A DNA stretch of 32,609 nucleotides, taken from an uncultured Pseudomonadota bacterium (GTDB lineage Bacteria; Pseudomonadota; Alphaproteobacteria; RF32; CAG-239). This document shows positions 1,226-11,295 of this stretch, piece after piece. The first letter of the stretch is position 1. Each line of letters starts with the position of its first letter. The translations under genes and the position numbers were made by a program. Location: positions 1-32,609 of the forward strand of contig CADBMG010000078.1 of assembly GCA_902795745.1 (NCBI GenBank), in the 5' to 3' direction. A model generated the notes under the pieces. That model was not told the DNA's origin and made no database searches. It worked only from the letters and a program-made list of their open reading frames with translations.

Positions 1226-2206
1226 ATGCAGAAAATTATTCCGAATAAATTGCAAAAGGGTGATAAAGTGATGATTGTAGCACCGGCGCGCGGTTTGAAA
1301 TTAATCAGTGCCGATTGTCGTGAACTTGCTGAAAAAAGGTTGCGTGAGATGGGACTGAATCCGGTGTTTGCTCCTAATACAACCGATGCAAATTTTGATG
1401 CTATGTGCAGTTGGAATGCTCAAGCACGGGCAGATGATTTAATGACAGCTTTTTCCGATAAATCAGTTAAGGCAATTTTTACCGTGTTAGGTGGTTTTAA
1501 CAGCAATCAGATTTTACCGTTGCTTGATTTTGAAATTATTAAGGCGAATCCGAAAATATTTTGCGGTTTTTCCGATATAACGGCGCTGCATGCAGCAATT
1601 AATGCTAAAACCGGTTTGCAAACATATTACGGTCCGCATTACAGTTCAATAGGTATGAGAAAAGGGTGTGAGTACACATTGCAATATTTGCAAAAAATAT
1701 TGTTCAGTGATGAGGTTGTAGAAGTTTTGCCGGCGGAACAATGGAGCGATGATGCGTGGTTTATTGATCAGGAAAATCGCGAATTTATACCTAATGACGG
1801 CTTTTGGAATATTCATAACGGTAGTGCAAAAGGCACGATTGTCGGTGGTAATTTGTGCACTTTTAATTTGCTTTTAGGTACGGATATGCGTCCGGTATTT
1901 GCTCCTGATACGATTTTAATGATTGAAGATGACGGCGGAAGCAATGCGGCAGTGTTTGATCGTAATTTGCAAGCCTTATGTTATCAGCCTGATTTTCGAA
2001 ATGTTAAGGCTTTGGTGATAGGGCGTTTTCAAAAAGAATCAAAAATTGATAGGAAAATGTTGGAGTTTATTATCAACAATAAGCCTGAACTGAAAAATAT
2101 TCCGGTGTTGGCGAATGTCGATTATGGTCACGCCACGCCGATTATTACCATTCCTTTAGGCGGAGAGGCTGAACTCAATAATGGAAAGTTGACTTTGGCA
2201 AAATAA
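1226..2206 (+). CDS. ldcA: LD-carboxypeptidase (peptidase S66, LdcA/MccF-like).
   Basis: GFSDITALH nucleophile-Ser motif, IEDDGG, and C-terminal DYGHATP matching the S66 Ser-Glu-His triad context. The start lies 2 nt after the upstream stop. Confidence 0.8.
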   Translation: MQKIIPNKLQKGDKVMIVAPARGLKLISADCRELAEKRLREMGLNPVFAPNTTDANFDAMCSWNAQARADDLMTAFSDKSVKAIFTVLGGFNSNQILPLLDFEIIKANPKIFCGFSDITALHAAINAKTGLQTYYGPHYSSIGMRKGCEYTLQYLQKILFSDEVVEVLPAEQWSDDAWFIDQENREFIPNDGFWNIHNGSAKGTIVGGNLCTFNLLLGTDMRPVFAPDTILMIEDDGGSNAAVFDRNLQALCYQPDFRNVKALVIGRFQKESKIDRKMLEFIINNKPELKNIPVLANVDYGHATPIITIPLGGEAELNNGKLTLAK

Positions 2207-2225
2207 ACAAATTATTTACGTCAAA

Positions 2226-2259
2226 ACAAAAAATCCCCGACTGACGTCAGGGATTTTTT
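2226..2259. terminator. Bidirectional rho-independent terminator between convergent ldcA and the DUF1013 gene.
   Basis: aaaaaaATCCCCGAC-tgac-GTCAGGGATttttt: a 9-position stem with one mismatch, an A-run 5' and a T-run 3'. Confidence 0.6.
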
Positions 2260-2276
2260 CATTTTAAGCAAAGTTT

Positions 2277-3098
2277 TTACTTTTTCTTTGCGGTTGCTTT
2301 CTTTGTTGTTTTTTTAGCAGCAGCTTTTTTCGCTGCGGTTTTAGTCTTTGTTGTTTTTTTAGCCGTAGTTTTGGTTGTTGCCGCTTTGGCGGTTTTAGCT
2401 TTGGTTACCGTTTTTTTAGCAGCTGTTTTTTTCGTTGCCGTTTTAGTTTTTACTGCTTTACTTTTTGGTGCAGTCTTTTTCGCGGCAGTTTTAGTTGTTT
2501 TAGTTTTTACTGTTTTTTTCTTTGCTGCAACCTTAGTCTTTTTAGCTTTTTTAGCAGGTTTCTTTTTGGTCTTAGGTTTAGGATTACTTAATGCCTCTGA
2601 TACGCTAACTGCTTTTTCCAGTGAAATTTCATCACAGAGGCCTAATGTCATCGGGTTTTTCGGCTTTAAGTCTTCATAGCCTTTATTTCGAACCTTGGCA
2701 ATTGTCGGTTTTGTAGTGCCTAATAATTTGGCAATTTGCGAATCGATAATGTTAGGAAATTGTTGCAGAATCCATAAAATTGCCGCCGGCTTTTCACTAC
2801 GCTGCGTCGGGGTTAGCAGCTTTTTAGCCTTGGCATTGCGCTCTTTAACATTGTTCTCTAAAACGTTTGCTACCAAATCGGCATGCGAATCGGCTTCACA
2901 ACGATGAATTTCTTCCCAAGTTAGCTGATTGTTGTTAATCGGACTCAGACCGACAATATTATAAGCTACATCGCCGTCTGCAATGGCTTGAATTTCTAAT
3001 TCGTGAATTTCGCAAAACTTAGCAATTTGGCGAAAAGTCAGTGTCGTATTTTCAACAAGCCATACGGCTGTTGCTTTTGGCATTAAAGGTGCTGTCAT
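2277..3098 (-). CDS. DUF1013-family protein (alphaproteobacterial, two HTH-like repeats) with a C-terminal Lys/Ala/Thr-rich histone-H1-like tail of about 108 aa.
   Basis: The N-terminus MTAPLMPKATAVWLVENTTLTFRQIAKFCEIHELEIQAIADGD and the second repeat IIDSQIAKLLGTTKPTIAKVRNK resemble DUF1013. Residues about 166-273 are almost only K, A and T (AAKKT, TKTKT repeats). Confidence 0.75.
   Translation of the reverse strand: MTAPLMPKATAVWLVENTTLTFRQIAKFCEIHELEIQAIADGDVAYNIVGLSPINNNQLTWEEIHRCEADSHADLVANVLENNVKERNAKAKKLLTPTQRSEKPAAILWILQQFPNIIDSQIAKLLGTTKPTIAKVRNKGYEDLKPKNPMTLGLCDEISLEKAVSVSEALSNPKPKTKKKPAKKAKKTKVAAKKKTVKTKTTKTAAKKTAPKSKAVKTKTATKKTAAKKTVTKAKTAKAATTKTTAKKTTKTKTAAKKAAAKKTTKKATAKKK
2280..2603 (-). 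repeat. Low-complexity coding repeat that encodes the K/A/T tail. It consists of degenerate short tandem units and is T-rich on the + strand.
   Basis: Reiterated gttttag / ttttttagc / gctgc(g/a)gtt units on the + strand. The mirror ORF 2371-2679 (+) is an artefact of this repeat. Confidence 0.7.
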
Positions 3099-3186
3099 AA
3101 TTTTATTCCTTTCATTTTTTGTTCTCTATATGCTTACTGTAAACAAGCAACTTTCAATATACAAGCATATTTTTCACTTTATAAAC

Positions 3187-3216
3187 GCAAAAGGCCTGCT
3201 CAATGCAGGCGCTTTT
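3187..3216 (-). terminator. Candidate terminator downstream of rpmE.
   Basis: GCCTGC (3194-3199) / GCAGGC (3205-3210), a 6-bp stem with a 5-nt loop. On the minus strand it is followed by CTTTTGCGTTT, about 20 nt after the rpmE stop. Confidence 0.45.
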
Positions 3217-3235
3217 AGCAATTGCTTTGGTAACA

Positions 3236-3463
3236 TTAGTTATTTTTCAAACCAAAAGCGGCAAACTTATTGTTAAATTTGCTTACCTGACCGCCACTGT
3301 CTACCAAGCGACGTTGACCGGTCCAAGCCGGATGCGACTTCGGGTCAATTTCGAGCAACATCTTATCGCCGGCTTTACCCCAAGTCGATTTGGTTTTAAC
3401 TTCTGTTCCATCTGTCATCACATATGTAATCTCGTGATAATCAGGGTGAATTCCTTTTTTCAT
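3236..3463 (-). CDS. rpmE: 50S ribosomal protein L31.
   Basis: [12 protein letters not shown]...[24 protein letters not shown] is the canonical L31 sequence. There is no CxxC pair, so it is the non-zinc form. Confidence 0.95.
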
Positions 3464-3565
3464 TTATATTCTCCAATTAACAACTTACGATATTTTTTAG
3501 CCTTTATACATTATGCTTTTCAAATACGCAAGCATTATTTTTATCATTTTTTAATTTTTTTCGAT

Positions 3566-4348
3566 TTAAGCGAACAAATCAGCTGCTTTTTGGCGCAAAG
3601 CTTCATTGCAAGCAATAATTCTGCCGCCGCTTAGTGCTTTGAGCAAATCTTCGCTACGCACGTCCTTTTCGCCCATTGCCAATACATAACCTCCGGCTTC
3701 TTTAACCAATAATATGCCGGCAGCCATTGAAATAATCGGAGTGTCGACAATAGCAGCAATATCGGTTTTGCCGGCAGCAACATAGGCTAAATCCATAGCC
3801 GGACAGCCGCTGATGTTGAGGTTAGGCGAAACGCTTAAAGCTTTCTGGACTAAGGTCGCAGCAGCATTGGTGCTGAACAATGCGTTTTCAATGTTTTTGC
3901 GACCGGCTACCCGTAAACGTTCGTGGCTGCGGAAGCCTTCTTTGAATGCTCCGGCACCTTTTTCGGCAAAAAACATCTCATCGGTTATCGGATTATACAC
4001 TGCCGCTAATGTCACGGTGTTGTTTTCAATCATGGCTACCGATAGAGCAAAACGCGTGTTGCCGTGTGCAAAATTTGTCATACCGTCAATAGCGTTAATT
4101 ACAAAATAGCTATTGTTTGTCGGGAGCGAATCGACTGTTTCGCTGACAAAAGCGTAGTTAGGCTTTATTTTAGCGAGTTCTTCTTGCAAAATATTGCGTA
4201 CTTTTTCATACGAATGTTGAGCAAATCGTTCTCCGCCGTGTACCGAAGTCTGCAGGTGTTCCAATTCGTTGAAATCACGCGCCAACGGAATAGCAGCCTT
4301 TTTCAGTGCGCCAATGGTTAAGGTCAAAAGAGGAGAAAGATATGCCAT
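3566..4348 (-). CDS. suhB: Inositol monophosphatase family protein (SuhB-like).
   Basis: FVINAIDGMTNFAHG (DPIDGT-NF-like metal site), the WDxAAG-equivalent MDLAYVAAG, and a length of 260 aa. Confidence 0.85.
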   Translation of the reverse strand: MAYLSPLLTLTIGALKKAAIPLARDFNELEHLQTSVHGGERFAQHSYEKVRNILQEELAKIKPNYAFVSETVDSLPTNNSYFVINAIDGMTNFAHGNTRFALSVAMIENNTVTLAAVYNPITDEMFFAEKGAGAFKEGFRSHERLRVAGRKNIENALFSTNAAATLVQKALSVSPNLNISGCPAMDLAYVAAGKTDIAAIVDTPIISMAAGILLVKEAGGYVLAMGEKDVRSEDLLKALSGGRIIACNEALRQKAADLFA

Positions 4349-4911
4349 TATTTTGCTCTTTCAACATAATTAGCTTCGGCTGTGCCGACAACGATTTTAT
4401 CACCTACGCCGATGAACGGAGGAACAGTTGTGCGTACGCCGTTATCCAAAATTGCCGGTTTGTATGACGAAGAAACGGTTTGTCCCTTGATTACAGGTTC
4501 GGTTTCAACAACCGTGCAAACTACTTGCAACGGCAAATCAACGGAAATAGGACGACCGTCGATGTAAGAAATTTTTACATCCATACCGTCAGTCAAAAAC
4601 GGGCGCGAATCGCCTAAAATATCTGCCGGCATGGTAAATTGTTCGTAAGTATCGGATTCCATAAAGGTTAATCCGGAAGCATCTTCAAACAAAAATTGGC
4701 AATCTCTGTCTTCTACCATCAACTTTTCAACCGTATCCTCGGTTCTAAAGCGTTCATTGGTTTTGGTACCGGCTTCAACTTCTTTCATTTCTACCTGCAT
4801 AAAAGCTCCGCCTTTTCCCGGTTTGATGTGTACGGCTTTGGTAATTGTCCATGGCTTGCCTTTATATTCAATAACCCAGCCAATTCTTATTGCTCCTGCG
4901 AGTTGTTTCAT
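4348..4911 (-). CDS. efp: Translation elongation factor P.
   Basis: IEYKGKPWTITKAVHIKPGKGGAFMQVEMKEV contains the conserved KPGKG loop. Length is 187 aa, and a GGAGA SD lies upstream. Confidence 0.95.
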   Translation of the reverse strand: MKQLAGAIRIGWVIEYKGKPWTITKAVHIKPGKGGAFMQVEMKEVEAGTKTNERFRTEDTVEKLMVEDRDCQFLFEDASGLTFMESDTYEQFTMPADILGDSRPFLTDGMDVKISYIDGRPISVDLPLQVVCTVVETEPVIKGQTVSSSYKPAILDNGVRTTVPPFIGVGDKIVVGTAEANYVERAK

Positions 4912-5025
4912 CTTTTATTCTCCATATATACAATTTTAAAAGTGATTGATGAGGGCAACATAAAACATTTATTTTTTTTTCGCAACAAAAATTTTGCTTT
5001 TCGTAATTTTTTAACAAAAAAAATG

Positions 5026-5053
5026 TTGACTTTCAGAAAAATAGCGATATTAT
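5026..5053 (+). promoter_or_regulatory. Candidate sigma70-type promoter for the GC-rich orphan gene.
   Basis: TTGACT (5026-5031), 16-nt spacer, TATTAT (5048-5053), about 30 nt upstream of the ATG at 5083. Confidence 0.35.
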
Positions 5054-5082
5054 TCTTTTTGTCTAACCAATAATTAAGATAT

Positions 5083-5592
5083 ATGGAAAAGAAAAAAATT
5101 TTGCCTTTCATCCTGATGCTTATGGATGAAAGTGGTGCTACGGTTGATGATATCCGTGAGGCACAGATTCTTGCTCGCAGGTCCAAGTATGCCGACGAGA
5201 GGTTTGATTTGCTGGTTGAGGTTGACGGAGAGCGCAGGCGTGTGCCTTTTAGTGAAGGCAAGGAAATGAAGCCGCTCGGTATTTTTCCGCGCAACAGTTC
5301 AAGGTTCTTTATCCTCTTCGGTGTGAGCCAGCCGGCGCCGTATCCTGATGAGCTGCGCAGCCAGATGGCCGACAAGCACGTGGCCGAGAAGGTCATCGCT
5401 CCGGTTTTGCCTGAACTCAACGCCAAGCTCAAGGAGGTCGGCATTGCTCCGCTTTCCGGTCGTTACTGGATTGACGGAATGGAGCATTCCGGCAACGGCT
5501 ACTGGGCGTTGATCTGCAACAAGCTTAATGCTGATGTGACGTACCTCGACGAGAAGCACAAGGCGATGATTCTGCTCGGAGGGTATCTCTGA
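5083..5592 (+). CDS. Hypothetical protein with no family recognised. It is a compositionally foreign (GC-rich) orphan gene.
   Basis: 169-aa ORF. The frame shows strong G/C at codon third positions (AAG, GAG, CTC, GCC, GAC). Hand-counted 60-nt blocks give 52-60% GC between 5161 and 5460, against about 38% in a host coding block. It has its own promoter-like element and terminator. Confidence 0.6.
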   Translation: MEKKKILPFILMLMDESGATVDDIREAQILARRSKYADERFDLLVEVDGERRRVPFSEGKEMKPLGIFPRNSSRFFILFGVSQPAPYPDELRSQMADKHVAEKVIAPVLPELNAKLKEVGIAPLSGRYWIDGMEHSGNGYWALICNKLNADVTYLDEKHKAMILLGGYL

Positions 5593-5606
5593 GCATGAAA
5601 TCTTTG

Positions 5607-5646
5607 AAAAAATCCTGTTCCCCCACAAGGGCGGCAGGATTTTTTT
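5607..5646 (+). terminator. Rho-independent terminator of the GC-rich orphan gene.
   Basis: AAAAAATCCTG (5607-5617) pairs with CAGGATTTTTT (5635-5645). An inner CCCCC/GGG(C)GG helix extends the stem, and a T6 run follows. Confidence 0.65.
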
Positions 5647-5720
5647 GTACTGTTATATTTTTACTTGATTTATGATAAAAATCAGCTAAGGTGGGTACAT
5701 ATTAATGACAAAGGAGAAAA

Positions 5721-6302
5721 ATGATGTTGCTTTTAGCTTTATTTCTTGCCGTTTTTATTTACAGCGTTCCGGTTTTGGCGAATCCGGCTTGTGCCGTATG
5801 TACGGTAGGGGTGGTTGCCGGTTTGAGTGTTGCCCGCAATTTGGGTGTTGATGACGGTGTGGTAGCAATTTGGTCCGGCGCATTACTCGCACTCATCGGT
5901 TATTGGACAATATTGTGGTTTGAAAAGAAAAATTGGAATTTTCCTTTGCGTAATTTTTTATTAATGGCTTTGTCCTTAGCGATGATAGGCGGGGTTTATA
6001 TTAAAGATTTGGTGTATACTCCGCAGCCGATTTTGATTTTTTATATGGATCCGTTTTTGTTCTGTGCCTTACTCGGTGCGCTTATTTTGATATACAGTTC
6101 GGTATTTTATCAATGGATGAAAGCAAAAAACGGCGGACACGCTCATTTTCCGTTCGAAAAAGTGGTGTTACCGATTGCGGCATTGGCTCTTGCCAGCTGG
6201 GCGGTTGATTATTTGCAACTGTGCCAACCGACGGCGGAGGACGGAATTGAGGCTGTTTTGAATATACCTGCCGACGGTTCTGATATTTATGACTTTAATT
6301 AA
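5721..6302 (+). CDS. Hypothetical integral membrane protein with several predicted TM helices.
   Basis: AAGGAG SD 5 nt upstream. The sequence is very hydrophobic, with an N-terminal signal-like segment followed by CAVC. No family recognised. Confidence 0.6.
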   Translation: MMLLLALFLAVFIYSVPVLANPACAVCTVGVVAGLSVARNLGVDDGVVAIWSGALLALIGYWTILWFEKKNWNFPLRNFLLMALSLAMIGGVYIKDLVYTPQPILIFYMDPFLFCALLGALILIYSSVFYQWMKAKNGGHAHFPFEKVVLPIAALALASWAVDYLQLCQPTAEDGIEAVLNIPADGSDIYDFN

Positions 6303-6470
6303 AAAAGTTTTTTCATCAAAGTTGCTTTGAAACGGCTTTTTTATCAATGACGGAAATCTTCTGAATGATATTCTGAAAATCTTTTTTGCTGCTTTTCCTG
6401 AAAAATGATAAAAAATAATTATATATAAGAAAACGAGAAAAATACCATTTGAAAGATGTATTAAAATCAA

Positions 6471-6499
6471 TTGACAACCAATATAGAATCTTTTATATA
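6471..6499 (+). promoter_or_regulatory. Candidate sigma70-type promoter for the XRE regulator/trmB pair.
   Basis: TTGACA (6471-6476), 17-nt spacer, TATATA (6494-6499). An AGGAG SD follows at about 6527. Confidence 0.45.
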
Positions 6500-6537
6500 G
6501 GTATACATAATAAATTAATATTTTATAGGAGCAGAAG

Positions 6538-7035
6538 ATGAGAAGAACAAAGTCTATACGCGGCAGAATGGACGATAATGAGCCAAATCCGATTGATGTT
6601 CACGTAGGAAAGCGTATTCGCTTGCGTCGTACTATTTTGCACATGACGCAGCAGCAATTGGCAGAAAAGTTGGGCTTGACTTTTCAGCAAGTGCAGAAAT
6701 ATGAAAAGGGTTTGAATCGCGTAGGAGCAAGCCGTTTGTGGGATATCAGCTGTGTTTTGAGCGTACCAATGAACTTCTTTTTTGAGGATATTGATGCTCG
6801 TGTTGCCGAATGCAGTCCGCGCCCGAAAAATGAGGGTGATGCTTATGTTCATGATGTACCGCCGGAGCTTGAAGATGATCCGATGAAGCGCGCCGAGACG
6901 TTGGAACTTGTTCGTGCATATTATAAAATAGTGAACCGTACTTTAGCTAAGAATATTTTCAATTTGTTGGTAGGTTTGTCCAGATCCAATTATAATACTC
7001 CGGATTTGGAATCATTAGAAAATGACGATAAATAA
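6538..7035 (+). CDS. XRE-family helix-turn-helix transcriptional regulator.
   Basis: VGKRIRLRRTILHMTQQQLAEKLGLTFQQVQKYEKGLNRVGASRLWDISCVL is a classic Cro/C1-type HTH. Confidence 0.85.
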   Translation: MRRTKSIRGRMDDNEPNPIDVHVGKRIRLRRTILHMTQQQLAEKLGLTFQQVQKYEKGLNRVGASRLWDISCVLSVPMNFFFEDIDARVAECSPRPKNEGDAYVHDVPPELEDDPMKRAETLELVRAYYKIVNRTLAKNIFNLLVGLSRSNYNTPDLESLENDDK

Positions 7036-9256: not shown

Positions 9257-9393
9257 TTTTCTCTCCTCATTTTGTAAATTTTTTATTTTGATATATGCAA
9301 TGATGCGCAAAAATCAACATTTCTTGTAAAAAATATTGCATTTTGTCAAAAAATGTGTATGATAAAGGAAATTATGGGATTTTAAGGAGCTTG

Positions 9394-11295
9394 ATGATGG
9401 CAATGAAAGATGGTTCGTATTTTACGCTTATCGGTGGTGTCAATAAAGAACGGATTGGTGCAAACAGCCTGTTGTTGACGGATGTTGTTGATGACAAAAC
9501 TACAAGAATAATGGTCGATTTAGGCTCATTGTTTCCTACCGATGAACAAAAAAATAAGGCTTTGGAATATAATATGAACCTGAGTGCTTTATTGCCGGAT
9601 GTGCGCAAATATTTCGATTACAGTGACAATAAGGGTGAACATAAAGCAAGCGAACCGATTGATGCATTGTTGATAACGCATTTTCATGAAGACCATATTG
9701 GAGCATTATCGCATTTAGCGCTGGCAGGTTTTAAACTGCCAAAAGTTTATGCCAGTTATGATACTGTTGAAACGATAAAGGCGTTGTTGCGCAAAAGTAT
9801 GAAGATTCCGTATAAAAATTGGCCGGAATTTAAAGTAATAAAACCTTATAAAAAGTTTAAAATAGGCTCAATGGGTATTGCCGGTTATTGTGTTTCGCAT
9901 CCGACACCGGGAGCAATGGGCTTCAAATTCAAGATGAAAGATGCCGTGTTTGAAGATATGGGGGATAATCGTTTGGCAGCATCGCAATTCAGTGAGCCGC
10001 TGGATTTTAAGAAATATCAAAAATTGTCAAAAGAGTTTCCTACGACTCATCTTTATGTTGATTCAACCTCCATTGCCGTTGATGACAGTCATATGTTTGG
10101 TAAAAATATGACTTTGAAAGAGGTTGAAAAATTGTCTCAGCAAAGTATTGATGAATGTGTCAACGAGGTGCTTGATATTTTGCGTAATCGTCCGGGTAAA
10201 AGATTTTATGTTCCGCTGATTTCGCGCAGTATGGAAAATATGTATGTGTATTTGAAAGCAGCGCAGATTTTTGCCAAAGAACAAGAGGCTGTAGGCAATA
10301 AATTTAAGGCATTTCTTGACGGTTTTCAGATGCAGATTGTTTATACCAGCTTGCAGAACAGACATTCGGATTTTGATGATATTATTTTCAATAGTCAGGA
10401 TATTGAAAATGCTGATGCGAAGGTGTTTAATAAAGAGTATCCTTCAGGCATGGTTTTCATTAGCGGGGCATTTGGTGAAAAGTCGGAATATCAGATGTCA
10501 GGCTTAGCGCGTTTGGCACGCGGAATGCATACGAGGTTTAAGTTTGATGATAATTCAGTGCTTCTTCAAGGCCAGAGACTGATTGATGGGTTACATCCGG
10601 AAGAAGTGCGAAAAGATTTGCAACTTGCTGCCTCGCAAGGAGTTGAAGTTATTGCCAATGATTTTGGTTTGGATCCGGGAAATTTTGAGCGTCGCCATAT
10701 TCAACTTTCCGGACATAACGGCGAAAACGGGACGAGGTTTATGCTGAAATTTATTAAAGACAGCCGTCCGAATAAAGATGAGCCGATGGTGGTGTTCTTC
10801 GGTCATGCCAGTGAAGGACAGGCAAGAGAGGCCGCCGAAATTTTAGATGATATAGTTGATAAAAGTCATCCTCTTTCCAACGGTCAGATCTATAAATTGT
10901 CTAAGAAAAAAGTTAAACTATTGGAAAATGTTAATGAAGATGAAATGAAAATGGTTGCGGTGGATTATAATCCGTACGCCGGAGTGAGCGTTTATAAGTT
11001 GGTAGACTGTGATTTAAATGAATTAGCAACTCTTAAAACAGTGGCACTTGAATCTATGAATGGGAAGGTTGAATATATCAGCAATCCGGACCAAATTATC
11101 GCCAAAGAAGAAAAACATATTTCTAATCGCAATAAAGCTTACGCAGAAAAGCATAAGTCCAAGCTAAAACCAAAATCTGATGAAGCACGTTTGGCAATTA
11201 ATGCCAGAAAAGCAGAACGCGAGGCAAATCGCAAAGCAAGGACAGCACAGAGGCGAGCACAGCGCAGTATAAAAAACGGCGGATACGGTAAATAA
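9394..11295 (+). CDS. RNase J-like metallo-beta-lactamase/beta-CASP ribonuclease with a Lys/Arg-rich C-terminal tail.
   Basis: ITHFHEDHIGAL (HxHxDH motif), the overall size, and a later GHASEGQ region. The start is set at the ATG at 9394 after an AAGGAG SD; the track ORF opens at a TTG at 9343. The last 60 aa or so are highly basic. Confidence 0.65.
   Translation: MMAMKDGSYFTLIGGVNKERIGANSLLLTDVVDDKTTRIMVDLGSLFPTDEQKNKALEYNMNLSALLPDVRKYFDYSDNKGEHKASEPIDALLITHFHEDHIGALSHLALAGFKLPKVYASYDTVETIKALLRKSMKIPYKNWPEFKVIKPYKKFKIGSMGIAGYCVSHPTPGAMGFKFKMKDAVFEDMGDNRLAASQFSEPLDFKKYQKLSKEFPTTHLYVDSTSIAVDDSHMFGKNMTLKEVEKLSQQSIDECVNEVLDILRNRPGKRFYVPLISRSMENMYVYLKAAQIFAKEQEAVGNKFKAFLDGFQMQIVYTSLQNRHSDFDDIIFNSQDIENADAKVFNKEYPSGMVFISGAFGEKSEYQMSGLARLARGMHTRFKFDDNSVLLQGQRLIDGLHPEEVRKDLQLAASQGVEVIANDFGLDPGNFERRHIQLSGHNGENGTRFMLKFIKDSRPNKDEPMVVFFGHASEGQAREAAEILDDIVDKSHPLSNGQIYKLSKKKVKLLENVNEDEMKMVAVDYNPYAGVSVYKLVDCDLNELATLKTVALESMNGKVEYISNPDQIIAKEEKHISNRNKAYAEKHKSKLKPKSDEARLAINARKAEREANRKARTAQRRAQRSIKNGGYGK

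Follow-up and report, generated by a model that had tools for sequence, protein, structure and literature searches.

Does a gene rich in guanine and cytosine (GC) betray a recent arrival when it lies in an AT-rich genome? The question is raised by an open reading frame (ORF) at positions 5083 to 5592 of contig CADBMG010000078.1 (GenBank assembly GCA_902795745.1), from an uncultured alphaproteobacterium of the lineage RF32, CAG-239. We analyzed a stretch of 32,609 nucleotides (nt) of this contig, referred to below as the window; coordinates are those of the window, and features lie on the forward strand unless stated otherwise. The original prediction, made from the letters of the window, had described the ORF as a recently acquired and independently expressed orphan, in which a foreign fragment from a high-GC donor had gained a local 5′ end and whose product might serve in anti-defense, immunity, or as an effector. 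We lean toward another answer, which as a joint proposition we consider somewhat probable: the ORF would be a genuine, species-fixed gene of an uncurated protein family, its product would have a lectin fold, and its GC-rich composition would be a trait of the gene lineage. The islet consists of this one gene and is set in a core region of the chromosome; its host is an uncultured alphaproteobacterium of the gut or rumen.

The compositional anomaly itself is confirmed against the window by sliding GC content, GC at third codon positions (GC3), and codon counts. The hand-counted 60-nt blocks of positions 5101 to 5460 were reproduced exactly (45.0, 51.7, 56.7, 55.0, 60.0, and 58.3% GC). The ORF as a whole has 52.5% GC, with 57.6, 35.9, and 64.1% at the first, second, and third codon positions (GC1, GC2, and GC3), and the maximum of a 510-nt sliding window (54.1% GC at 5131 to 5640) stands far from the window mean of 39.7% (standard deviation, 3.0%) and from the runner-up of 47.6%. 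Its GC3 lies about 4.5 standard deviations above a background of 0.383 ± 0.057, calculated from 34 greedily selected window ORFs that do not include it. In comparison to the same background, the ORF uses AAG and AAA 11 and 2 times (background, 130 and 385) and GAG and GAA 9 and 5 times (background, 118 and 329), while CTC accounts for 7 of its 19 leucine codons (background, 34 of 594). An AT-rich start of about 15 codons had also been noted, and the first 45 nt indeed have 31% GC, with the rise falling at about 5113 to 5173. Because efp and rpmE, two highly expressed genes of the window, show no preference for G- or C-ending codons, the codon usage of the ORF is not an ordinary expression-linked bias. 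Relative to the host window, the composition is thus atypical in the way by which horizontal-transfer islets are recognized.

A sharp compositional island alone does not prove recent transfer, and the comparison with relatives points elsewhere. The closest relatives are 36 to 45% identical to the window protein and are encoded at unrelated chromosomal sites, among housekeeping genes, in other low-GC hosts. Three of their genes (P0002, P0003, and P0004) have 51.6 to 53.6% GC and a GC3 of 0.65 to 0.71, within flanks of about 28 to 41% GC. In all four genes (these three and the window gene), at four loci in hosts whose GC content does not exceed about 40%, the excess is confined to the coding body: the upstream 150 nt have 18 to 27% GC, the first 45 nt have 31 to 38%, the rest of the coding sequence has 53 to 55% (GC3, 0.65 to 0.72), and the downstream 150 nt have 29 to 44%. 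More distant members of the family have 41 to 46% GC versus 35 to 39% in their flanks, an excess of 3 to 8 GC points. Because diverged relatives share the same GC profile, we read it as a trait of the gene lineage and not as a sign of recent import or of 5′ capture; on the evidence of these sequences, the anomaly is not specific to this genome. The recurrence of the profile at four unrelated loci in four low-GC hosts is not predicted by the amelioration model. Moreover, a cassette from a GC-rich donor should bring GC-rich control regions, and none of the control regions is GC-rich, which counts against a recently moved cassette. The proposed capture of a fragment with a local 5′ end is likewise contradicted, since homologous N-terminal 35 residues are found throughout the family and every family locus examined has the AT-rich first 45 nt. 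The pattern may be due to selection at the codon level or to the coding body alone having been captured repeatedly.

If the gene were a newcomer, conspecific genomes should help to reveal it. Conspecific contigs, which came from independent samples, were those encoding an Efp protein identical to that of the window (L093, L094, L095 [= L001], L097/L102, L103, L098, and L099), to which an exact 30-mer search added the JGI contig L111. All nine contigs that reach the locus, the window included, carry the gene. No empty site was found among contigs encoding identical Efp and membrane proteins, or among those found with the exact 30-mer upstream of the membrane gene; an uninterrupted junction between efp and the membrane gene is therefore not seen in conspecifics. 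Among 80 related species sampled, the order of efp, IMPase, rpmE, and trcR is kept in 56 to 80, the region upstream of efp differs between species, and a family member is found there in none. Because other species have a different gene order to either side, cross-species synteny is uninformative on insertion. Within the window, the neighboring genes are housekeeping genes, and we found no tRNA gene, no integrase, and no meaningful flanking repeats (only short, low-complexity ones).

Searches for a source gave a similar picture. No homologue was detected in a protein-level scan of IMG/VR, in INPHARED phages and PLSDB plasmids (tblastn), or in a peptide-pattern scan of JGI metagenomes, although it was from the latter source that the exact 30-mer later recovered the conspecific contig L111. 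The phmmer and profile protein searches returned proteins of gut and rumen Alphaproteobacteria, none of them from a high-GC context, so that the search for a high-GC donor came back empty.

These results bear directly on a recent horizontal acquisition from a high-GC donor, placed between efp and the membrane gene, with a locally acquired AT-rich 5′ end and a product of the anti-defense, immunity, or effector type. Such an event would account for a composition and codon usage strongly atypical for the window, for the absence of the gene beside efp in the 80 other species of the clade, and for a patchy family whose members occupy a different locus in each host; it would also suit a neighborhood that varies between strains. 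The absence in other species says little, however, because synteny is broken there anyway. Homology of the N-terminus extends throughout the family, all loci have the AT-rich start, the promoter and terminator regions of the gene are AT-rich (18 to 27% GC upstream) and not donor-like, and no integrase, tRNA gene, flanking repeat, or family-wide defense signal accompanies the gene. Given further that all nine conspecific contigs carry it, that their alleles are deeply diverged (see below), and that relatives elsewhere are equally GC-rich, the claim of a recent acquisition is not supported, and we consider this explanation distinctly unlikely. An older horizontal origin of the subfamily is possible.

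The variation in the neighborhood includes a 1.9-kb insert in L001 (SRR27608066, positions 1951 to 3888), located between the membrane gene and a helix-turn-helix gene (window positions 6302 to 6379), 0.7 kb downstream of the window gene, so that strains differ in the region that immediately follows the gene. The insert holds three small ORFs of 75, 130 (with a lipoprotein-like N-terminus), and 154 amino acids (aa); the two larger ones have no PADLOC match, and Pfam matches are on record for none of the three.

In contrast to a fresh arrival, the window gene is deeply polymorphic within the species. Its alleles are 89 to 93% identical in nucleotide sequence, and within the compared 2.9 kb, polymorphism peaks in the gene and its two intergenic regions. 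The IMPase and membrane genes are 99.1 to 99.8% identical among conspecifics (the membrane gene, 99.5 to 99.8%), with the exception of the IMPase gene of the contig L096 (97.2%). Overall synonymous divergence (dS) between alleles of the window gene is 0.17 to 0.38, versus 0 to 0.04 in these flanking genes; the ratio of nonsynonymous to synonymous divergence (dN/dS) is 0.11 to 0.24, and the differences are mostly at third positions. The divergence is distributed in blocks. A 5′ block of mosaic haplotypes (5083 to 5292) has a dS of 0.13 to 0.75 and a dN/dS of 0.08 to 0.34 between conspecific alleles. It is followed by a near-invariant core (5293 to 5502), the most GC-rich part (57.6% GC; GC3, 0.73), with 0 to 6 differences between alleles and a dS of 0 to 0.09, close to the flanking-gene background. 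The 3′ block (5503 to 5589), which encodes the last beta-strands, occurs in two main haplotypes (dS, 0.26 to 1.17; dN/dS, 0.04 to 0.22), and the polymorphism ends at about 5640, at the terminator. Judged from the alleles, this distribution indicates that diverged alleles are recurrently exchanged by homologous recombination while purifying selection acts, and not that the gene is decaying or freshly arrived.

Two observations concern the genes on the efp side. The efp gene has a dS of 0.05 to 0.18 and a dN of 0 among conspecifics, several-fold above the IMPase and membrane genes (0 to 0.04), and the deep-coalescing or recombining tract therefore extends over efp as well as the GC-rich gene. 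In L096, the IMPase gene is called in two pieces (79 and 171 aa), with 21 polymorphic sites at window positions 4100 to 4200; a frameshift in this allele, import of a tract, or faulty assembly could explain this patch.

The same polymorphism invites a different explanation of the composition, in which the gene is a long-time resident whose GC-rich third positions are maintained, whether through selection at the codon level (rare-codon tuning or mRNA stability) or because a recombination hotspot undergoes GC-biased gene conversion. Within the compared region, polymorphism and recombination peak at this locus, which is built of mosaic blocks, and its alleles all have 52.5 to 54.3% GC despite a block dS of up to 0.75. 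The four subfamily members hold their high GC3 in low-GC hosts, even the distant members exceed their flanks, and the confinement of the excess to the coding body favors a codon-level cause. Gene conversion, however, should raise the GC content of the recombining intergenic regions too, yet these have about 22 to 33% GC. Ordinary translational selection is also a poor fit, given the lack of a preference for G- or C-ending codons in efp and rpmE, and neither an RNA-structure signal nor a conserved antisense ORF was found. We regard active maintenance as possible but unlikely.

That the ORF is a gene at all could be questioned, because the GC-rich segment might not be primarily protein coding and could instead represent a structured RNA or an overlapping antisense gene. 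GC-rich islands within AT-rich genomes are often RNA genes, and long antisense ORFs are present at 4908 to 5444 and 5299 to 5628. The antisense ORFs, however, are not conserved across the genes of the family. Rfam gives only a terminator-like tail (E = 0.05, far under the gathering score), and the GC-rich core folds like its shuffles (z = −0.19). The sense frame, in contrast, has codon-position structure (GC3 > GC1 > GC2), purifying selection, and a confidently predicted fold, which leaves a noncoding or antisense origin very improbable.

We conclude that the ORF is a self-contained, monocistronic protein-coding gene with a predicted promoter and terminator of its own. It is considered genuine because of its low dN/dS, the third-position differences, a fixed start, and the conservation of promoter hexamers and terminator hairpin. 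The coding sequence (5083 to 5592, stop codon included) corresponds to a listed ORF, encodes 169 aa, and matches the family profile at E = 1.6e−43; its start codon is fixed because the stop-to-stop frame opens only at 5074, so that an earlier in-frame start is impossible. The predicted promoter is of the sigma-70 type (5026 to 5053), with the −35 hexamer TTGACT at 5026 to 5031, a 16-nt spacer, and the −10 hexamer TATTAT at 5048 to 5053. It matches 10 of 12 positions and ranks as the top promoter-like site within 4800 to 6500. Both hexamers are invariant in every conspecific allele covering them, while their intergenic surroundings are 88 to 98% identical (85 to 98% when those of the terminator hairpin are included), and a −35 context resembling ATATTGAC is found upstream of several further family members. 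The short AU-rich 5′ leader (5054 to 5082, taking the transcription start from the position of the −10 hexamer) has no Shine-Dalgarno sequence, and the centroid fold leaves the start codon unpaired. An AT-rich leader lacking a Shine-Dalgarno sequence and a lysine-rich N-terminus are common to other family loci.

At the 3′ side, an intrinsic terminator (5606 to 5646) consists of an A-tract, a GC-rich hairpin (stem, 5607 to 5617 paired with 5635 to 5645), and a T-tract. The hairpin has a dG of −20.8 kcal/mol (z = −4.17), a value equaled by none of 200 shuffles, and was also picked up in a repeat scan (repeat I7). It is retained in all alleles, and the T5619C substitution of other alleles turns a G-U pair into a G-C pair and gives a stronger stem. 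The predicted promoter and strong terminator of the original prediction were thus both found, and both are conserved among conspecific alleles. The terminators 3′ of the window gene and of the gene of its 45%-identical relative P0002 (L082, about 6780 to 6830) are alike, sharing the pattern TCCCC...GGGCG.CA.GA.TTTTTTTGT; judging from this likeness, gene and terminator may travel together.

The location between two unrelated host genes also holds. One is efp (4348 to 4911, reverse strand, divergently oriented), which carries the Pfam domains EFP_N, EFP, and Elong-fact-P_C. The other (5721 to 6302) is a native, widely conserved gene for a multi-pass membrane protein of 193 aa. In related Alphaproteobacteria, this protein has 1,157 homologue clusters, of which the 120 listed, apart from the window's own, are 57 to 84% identical, and none has a Pfam domain. 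In another species (L110, 8001 to 8585), the gene for this membrane protein lies between PilS/Bundlin-like pilin genes and adjoins secA.

Scans of the 169-aa product against Pfam, NCBIfam, and PHROGs gave no match, in agreement with the expectation that it belongs to no recognized curated family. It is no orphan, however. A word-indexed protein search found only a 92% allele, but phmmer against 1.84 billion representatives (clustered at 50% identity) retrieved 43 proteins at E ≤ 1e−3, mostly of 160 to 190 aa, and the profile search retrieved 64 clusters (at 90% identity), all of them unnamed or annotated as "hypothetical protein [Alphaproteobacteria bacterium]." The contigs encoding them come largely from rumen and gut metagenomes. 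The family is uncurated and confined to gut and rumen Alphaproteobacteria. Its conserved motifs are FDLLxxVDGxxxRLPFxxGKxxxPIGIFPF, LNxxLxxLGxPxLxGxY, and AKxRYxG, and the N-terminal 35 residues align throughout the family (MEKK...I..IM.E.GIT.EDI).

Besides the short members, the family has long forms of 356 to 485 aa, in which the same C-terminal domain comes after N-terminal hydrophobic segments and an additional region of about 160 aa. Long paralogues (P0059, P0062, P0070, P0086, and P0091; L090, 8001 to 9071) have one to about four such segments, and their additional region carries lectin-like motifs. A second copy of the domain in the long forms was considered and rejected, as hhalign aligned the C-terminal domain only. 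No conserved partner gene was found, and the neighbors of eight family loci share no homology. Beside one family member (L087, 4386 to 7241) are genes for a PcfJ-domain protein of 742 aa and for a 185-aa protein, whose N-terminus IAQVIEAMGITDRDE resembles the N-terminal hairpin motif of the family.

What the product might do was approached through its predicted structure. With an alignment of 62 sequences, AlphaFold2 gave a model with a mean predicted local distance difference test score (pLDDT) of 90.7, versus 39 for the single-sequence model. In this model, residues 3 to 35 (5089 to 5187) form a two-helix hairpin (helices 3 to 17 and 21 to 35) that corresponds to the motif conserved family-wide, and residues 40 to 169 (5200 to 5589) form an alpha/beta domain that, together with Foldseek comparisons, is predicted to be C-type-lectin-like, of the type found in the C-terminal domain (CTD) of Lcl, DUF1566, and Bd2740. 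Leading Foldseek matches in the Protein Data Bank (PDB) were 8oks_B, 8q4e, and CD72 (probability, 0.89 to 0.99; target-normalized template modeling [TM] score, 0.41 to 0.54), along with snake-venom C-type-lectin-like domains. In BFVD, the named top matches were a phage DUF1566 protein and herpesvirus C-type lectin proteins, the two best having target-normalized TM scores of 0.55 to 0.66; the phage protein matched with a probability of 1.00 and a TM score of 0.55 at a weak E-value of 0.021. The fold assignment is made because leading matches come from two independent libraries. A sequence-profile search of the PDB gave no credible match, and PF07603 (DUF1566) did not match the window protein at E ≤ 1, 44 members at E ≤ 0.1, or 10 members at E ≤ 5. 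As far as the model goes, the relation to the DUF1566, Lcl, and C-type-lectin class is therefore one of fold and not of family membership.

None of the 62 short members has a signal-like or transmembrane segment (Kyte-Doolittle hydropathy does not exceed 1.6 in any 19-residue window). The heads of Lcl, Bd2740, and Mtd are trimeric and have a lectin fold, and by analogy we suggest that the product is most likely soluble and non-enzymatic and binds a glycan or protein ligand as a module that may oligomerize through its N-terminal helices. The proposed anti-defense, immunity, or effector role found no support, given the lack of phage or plasmid homologues and only a weak PADLOC match to DruD. This match (PDLC00012; E = 5.9e−5, 20.6 bits) spans 5281 to 5535 (residues 67 to 151) and occurs in 2 of 62 members, namely, the window protein and another allele of the species. 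Assignment to DruD of Druantia was rejected, because so few members match and the neighbors are efp and a core membrane gene instead of Druantia genes; the match probably does not reflect homology.

A bolder version can be conjectured, although we would give it only a small chance: members of this signal-less lectin-fold family could be strain-specific recognition or protection factors (for example, binding a phage or competitor protein), with alleles shuffled under frequency-dependent selection and the GC content of the coding body held by a non-mutational force such as mRNA or decoding selection.

Returning to the joint reading of a species-fixed lectin-fold gene with a lineage-borne composition, we propose that a soluble product of 169 aa would combine a two-helix hairpin at its N-terminus with a C-type-lectin-like domain behind it and would act as a non-enzymatic binding module, perhaps oligomerized via the helices, while the long paralogues would deploy the same domain behind membrane anchors. 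The gene is found in all sampled contigs of the species and is under purifying selection; its mosaic allele blocks would be exchanged by homologous recombination, and its GC-rich coding body would be carried by the gene lineage across low-GC hosts.

Several points weigh against this proposal. The reference for composition was the 32.6-kb window alone and not the whole genome, repeated recent transfers from an unsampled GC-richer pool may have produced the pattern, and none of the mechanisms tested accounts for a GC3 of 0.65 to 0.72 that is confined to coding sequences in low-GC hosts. With respect to structure, Foldseek E-values are modest (0.005 to 0.09), and lectin-family sequence models of Pfam match neither the window protein nor the members scanned. 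The fold relatives are known to act outside the cell, yet the short forms carry no export signal, and the ligand, oligomeric state, and cellular location of the window protein are proposed by analogy. Finally, a K and an R that are near-universal in the family are replaced by M162 and L164 in the window protein, whose function may have shifted as a result.

If the reading is correct, what is new is an uncurated protein family from an abundant uncultured gut and rumen clade, together with a model-based fold assignment and the hypothesis of a soluble binding module with strain-level mosaic variation. Should selection prove to underlie the composition, the gene would usefully illustrate how codon usage can be selected in a single gene of an AT-rich genome; should it not, the gene would be an ordinary accessory gene.

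Two other genes of the window deserve mention. The TrcR-family protein encoded at 2277 to 3098 (reverse strand) has a long histone-H1-like C-terminal tail rich in lysine, alanine, and threonine, with a strong AT skew at 2250 to 2700, and the length of the product varies among conspecific contigs (273, 320, and 239 aa). A 650-aa protein with a metallo-beta-lactamase fold is encoded at 9343 to 11295; its orthologue in L001 bears a weak precomputed Pfam mark for Anti-Pycsar Apyc1, and a Pfam scan of the protein (E ≤ 1e−5) gave Lactamase_B and Lactamase_B_2 only.

How, then, does the window protein compare to known systems? For its N-terminal hairpin, a candidate was the H-NS N-terminal domain (PF22470, Histone_HNS_N), since the family pattern I..IM.E.GIT.EDL within the first 28 or so residues resembles profile positions 52 to 77. 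The matches are sub-threshold (best E = 2.5e−4; 13 to 15 bits in the two inspected, versus a gathering score of 24.5), concern 10 of the 44 members scanned, the window protein not being one of them, and are not accompanied by the H-NS C-terminal DNA-binding domain. Membership in the H-NS family was rejected on these grounds.

Canonical Ca-dependent C-type lectins have disulfide pairs and the motifs EPN or QPD and WND, whereas the window protein has one cysteine and none of these motifs. Metazoan and snake-venom C-type-lectin-like domains (CD72, rhodocetin, convulxin, and the mannose receptor) are alike in fold, with target-normalized TM scores of 0.41 to 0.51 to single-domain structures at Foldseek E-values of only 0.15 to 1, and the G-x-Y-W-x-D/N-G stretch of the window protein is, at the level of sequence, reminiscent of their WIGL core motif.

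Mtd of a Bordetella phage, the sole trimer-matching homologue cited for Bd2740 (PMC10769870), raises one more rival, in which a diversity-generating retroelement (DGR) would use a template repeat to hypermutate the C-terminal block of a variable protein with a lectin fold. The lectin-type fold and the variability of the C-terminal block among strains are what such a target would show. That block, however, has only two main haplotypes with mixed, not adenine-specific, substitutions and a dN/dS of 0.04 to 0.22, no second copy of any part of the gene lies in the window, and no reverse transcriptase is among the window genes. Mtd has DGR machinery and the window shows none; we give this explanation almost no weight, and for this window it is effectively refuted.

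The nearest structural counterparts are two bacterial adhesins. The CTD of Bd2740 from Bdellovibrio bacteriovorus (8OKS) is the best PDB match (E = 0.031; probability, 0.99; target-normalized TM score, 0.54) at a sequence identity of about 8%, and it has a Ca-independent C-type lectin fold that is trimeric and serves as a binding head (PMC10769870). Bd2740 forms the tip of a 627-aa surface MAT adhesive fiber, whereas the window protein has no fiber, stalk, or export signal. Similarly, the CTD of Lcl from Legionella pneumophila (PDB 8Q4E), which contains DUF1566, is a trimeric, Ca-independent C-type-lectin-like binding head (PMC11162425). It matches the window model with a probability of 0.98, a target-normalized TM score of 0.41, and a root-mean-square deviation of 2.6 Å over 76 columns, at a weak E-value of 0.087. 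Lcl is a secreted surface adhesin, whereas the window protein stands alone with about 170 aa and has neither a signal peptide nor a collagen-like stalk; trimerization and glycosaminoglycan binding, as in Lcl, are at most candidate properties of the window protein. If the model holds, the two would share a C-type-lectin-like fold that lacks disulfides and a Ca/carbohydrate motif, and both have a helical N-terminal region placed ahead of the head domain (PMC11162425).

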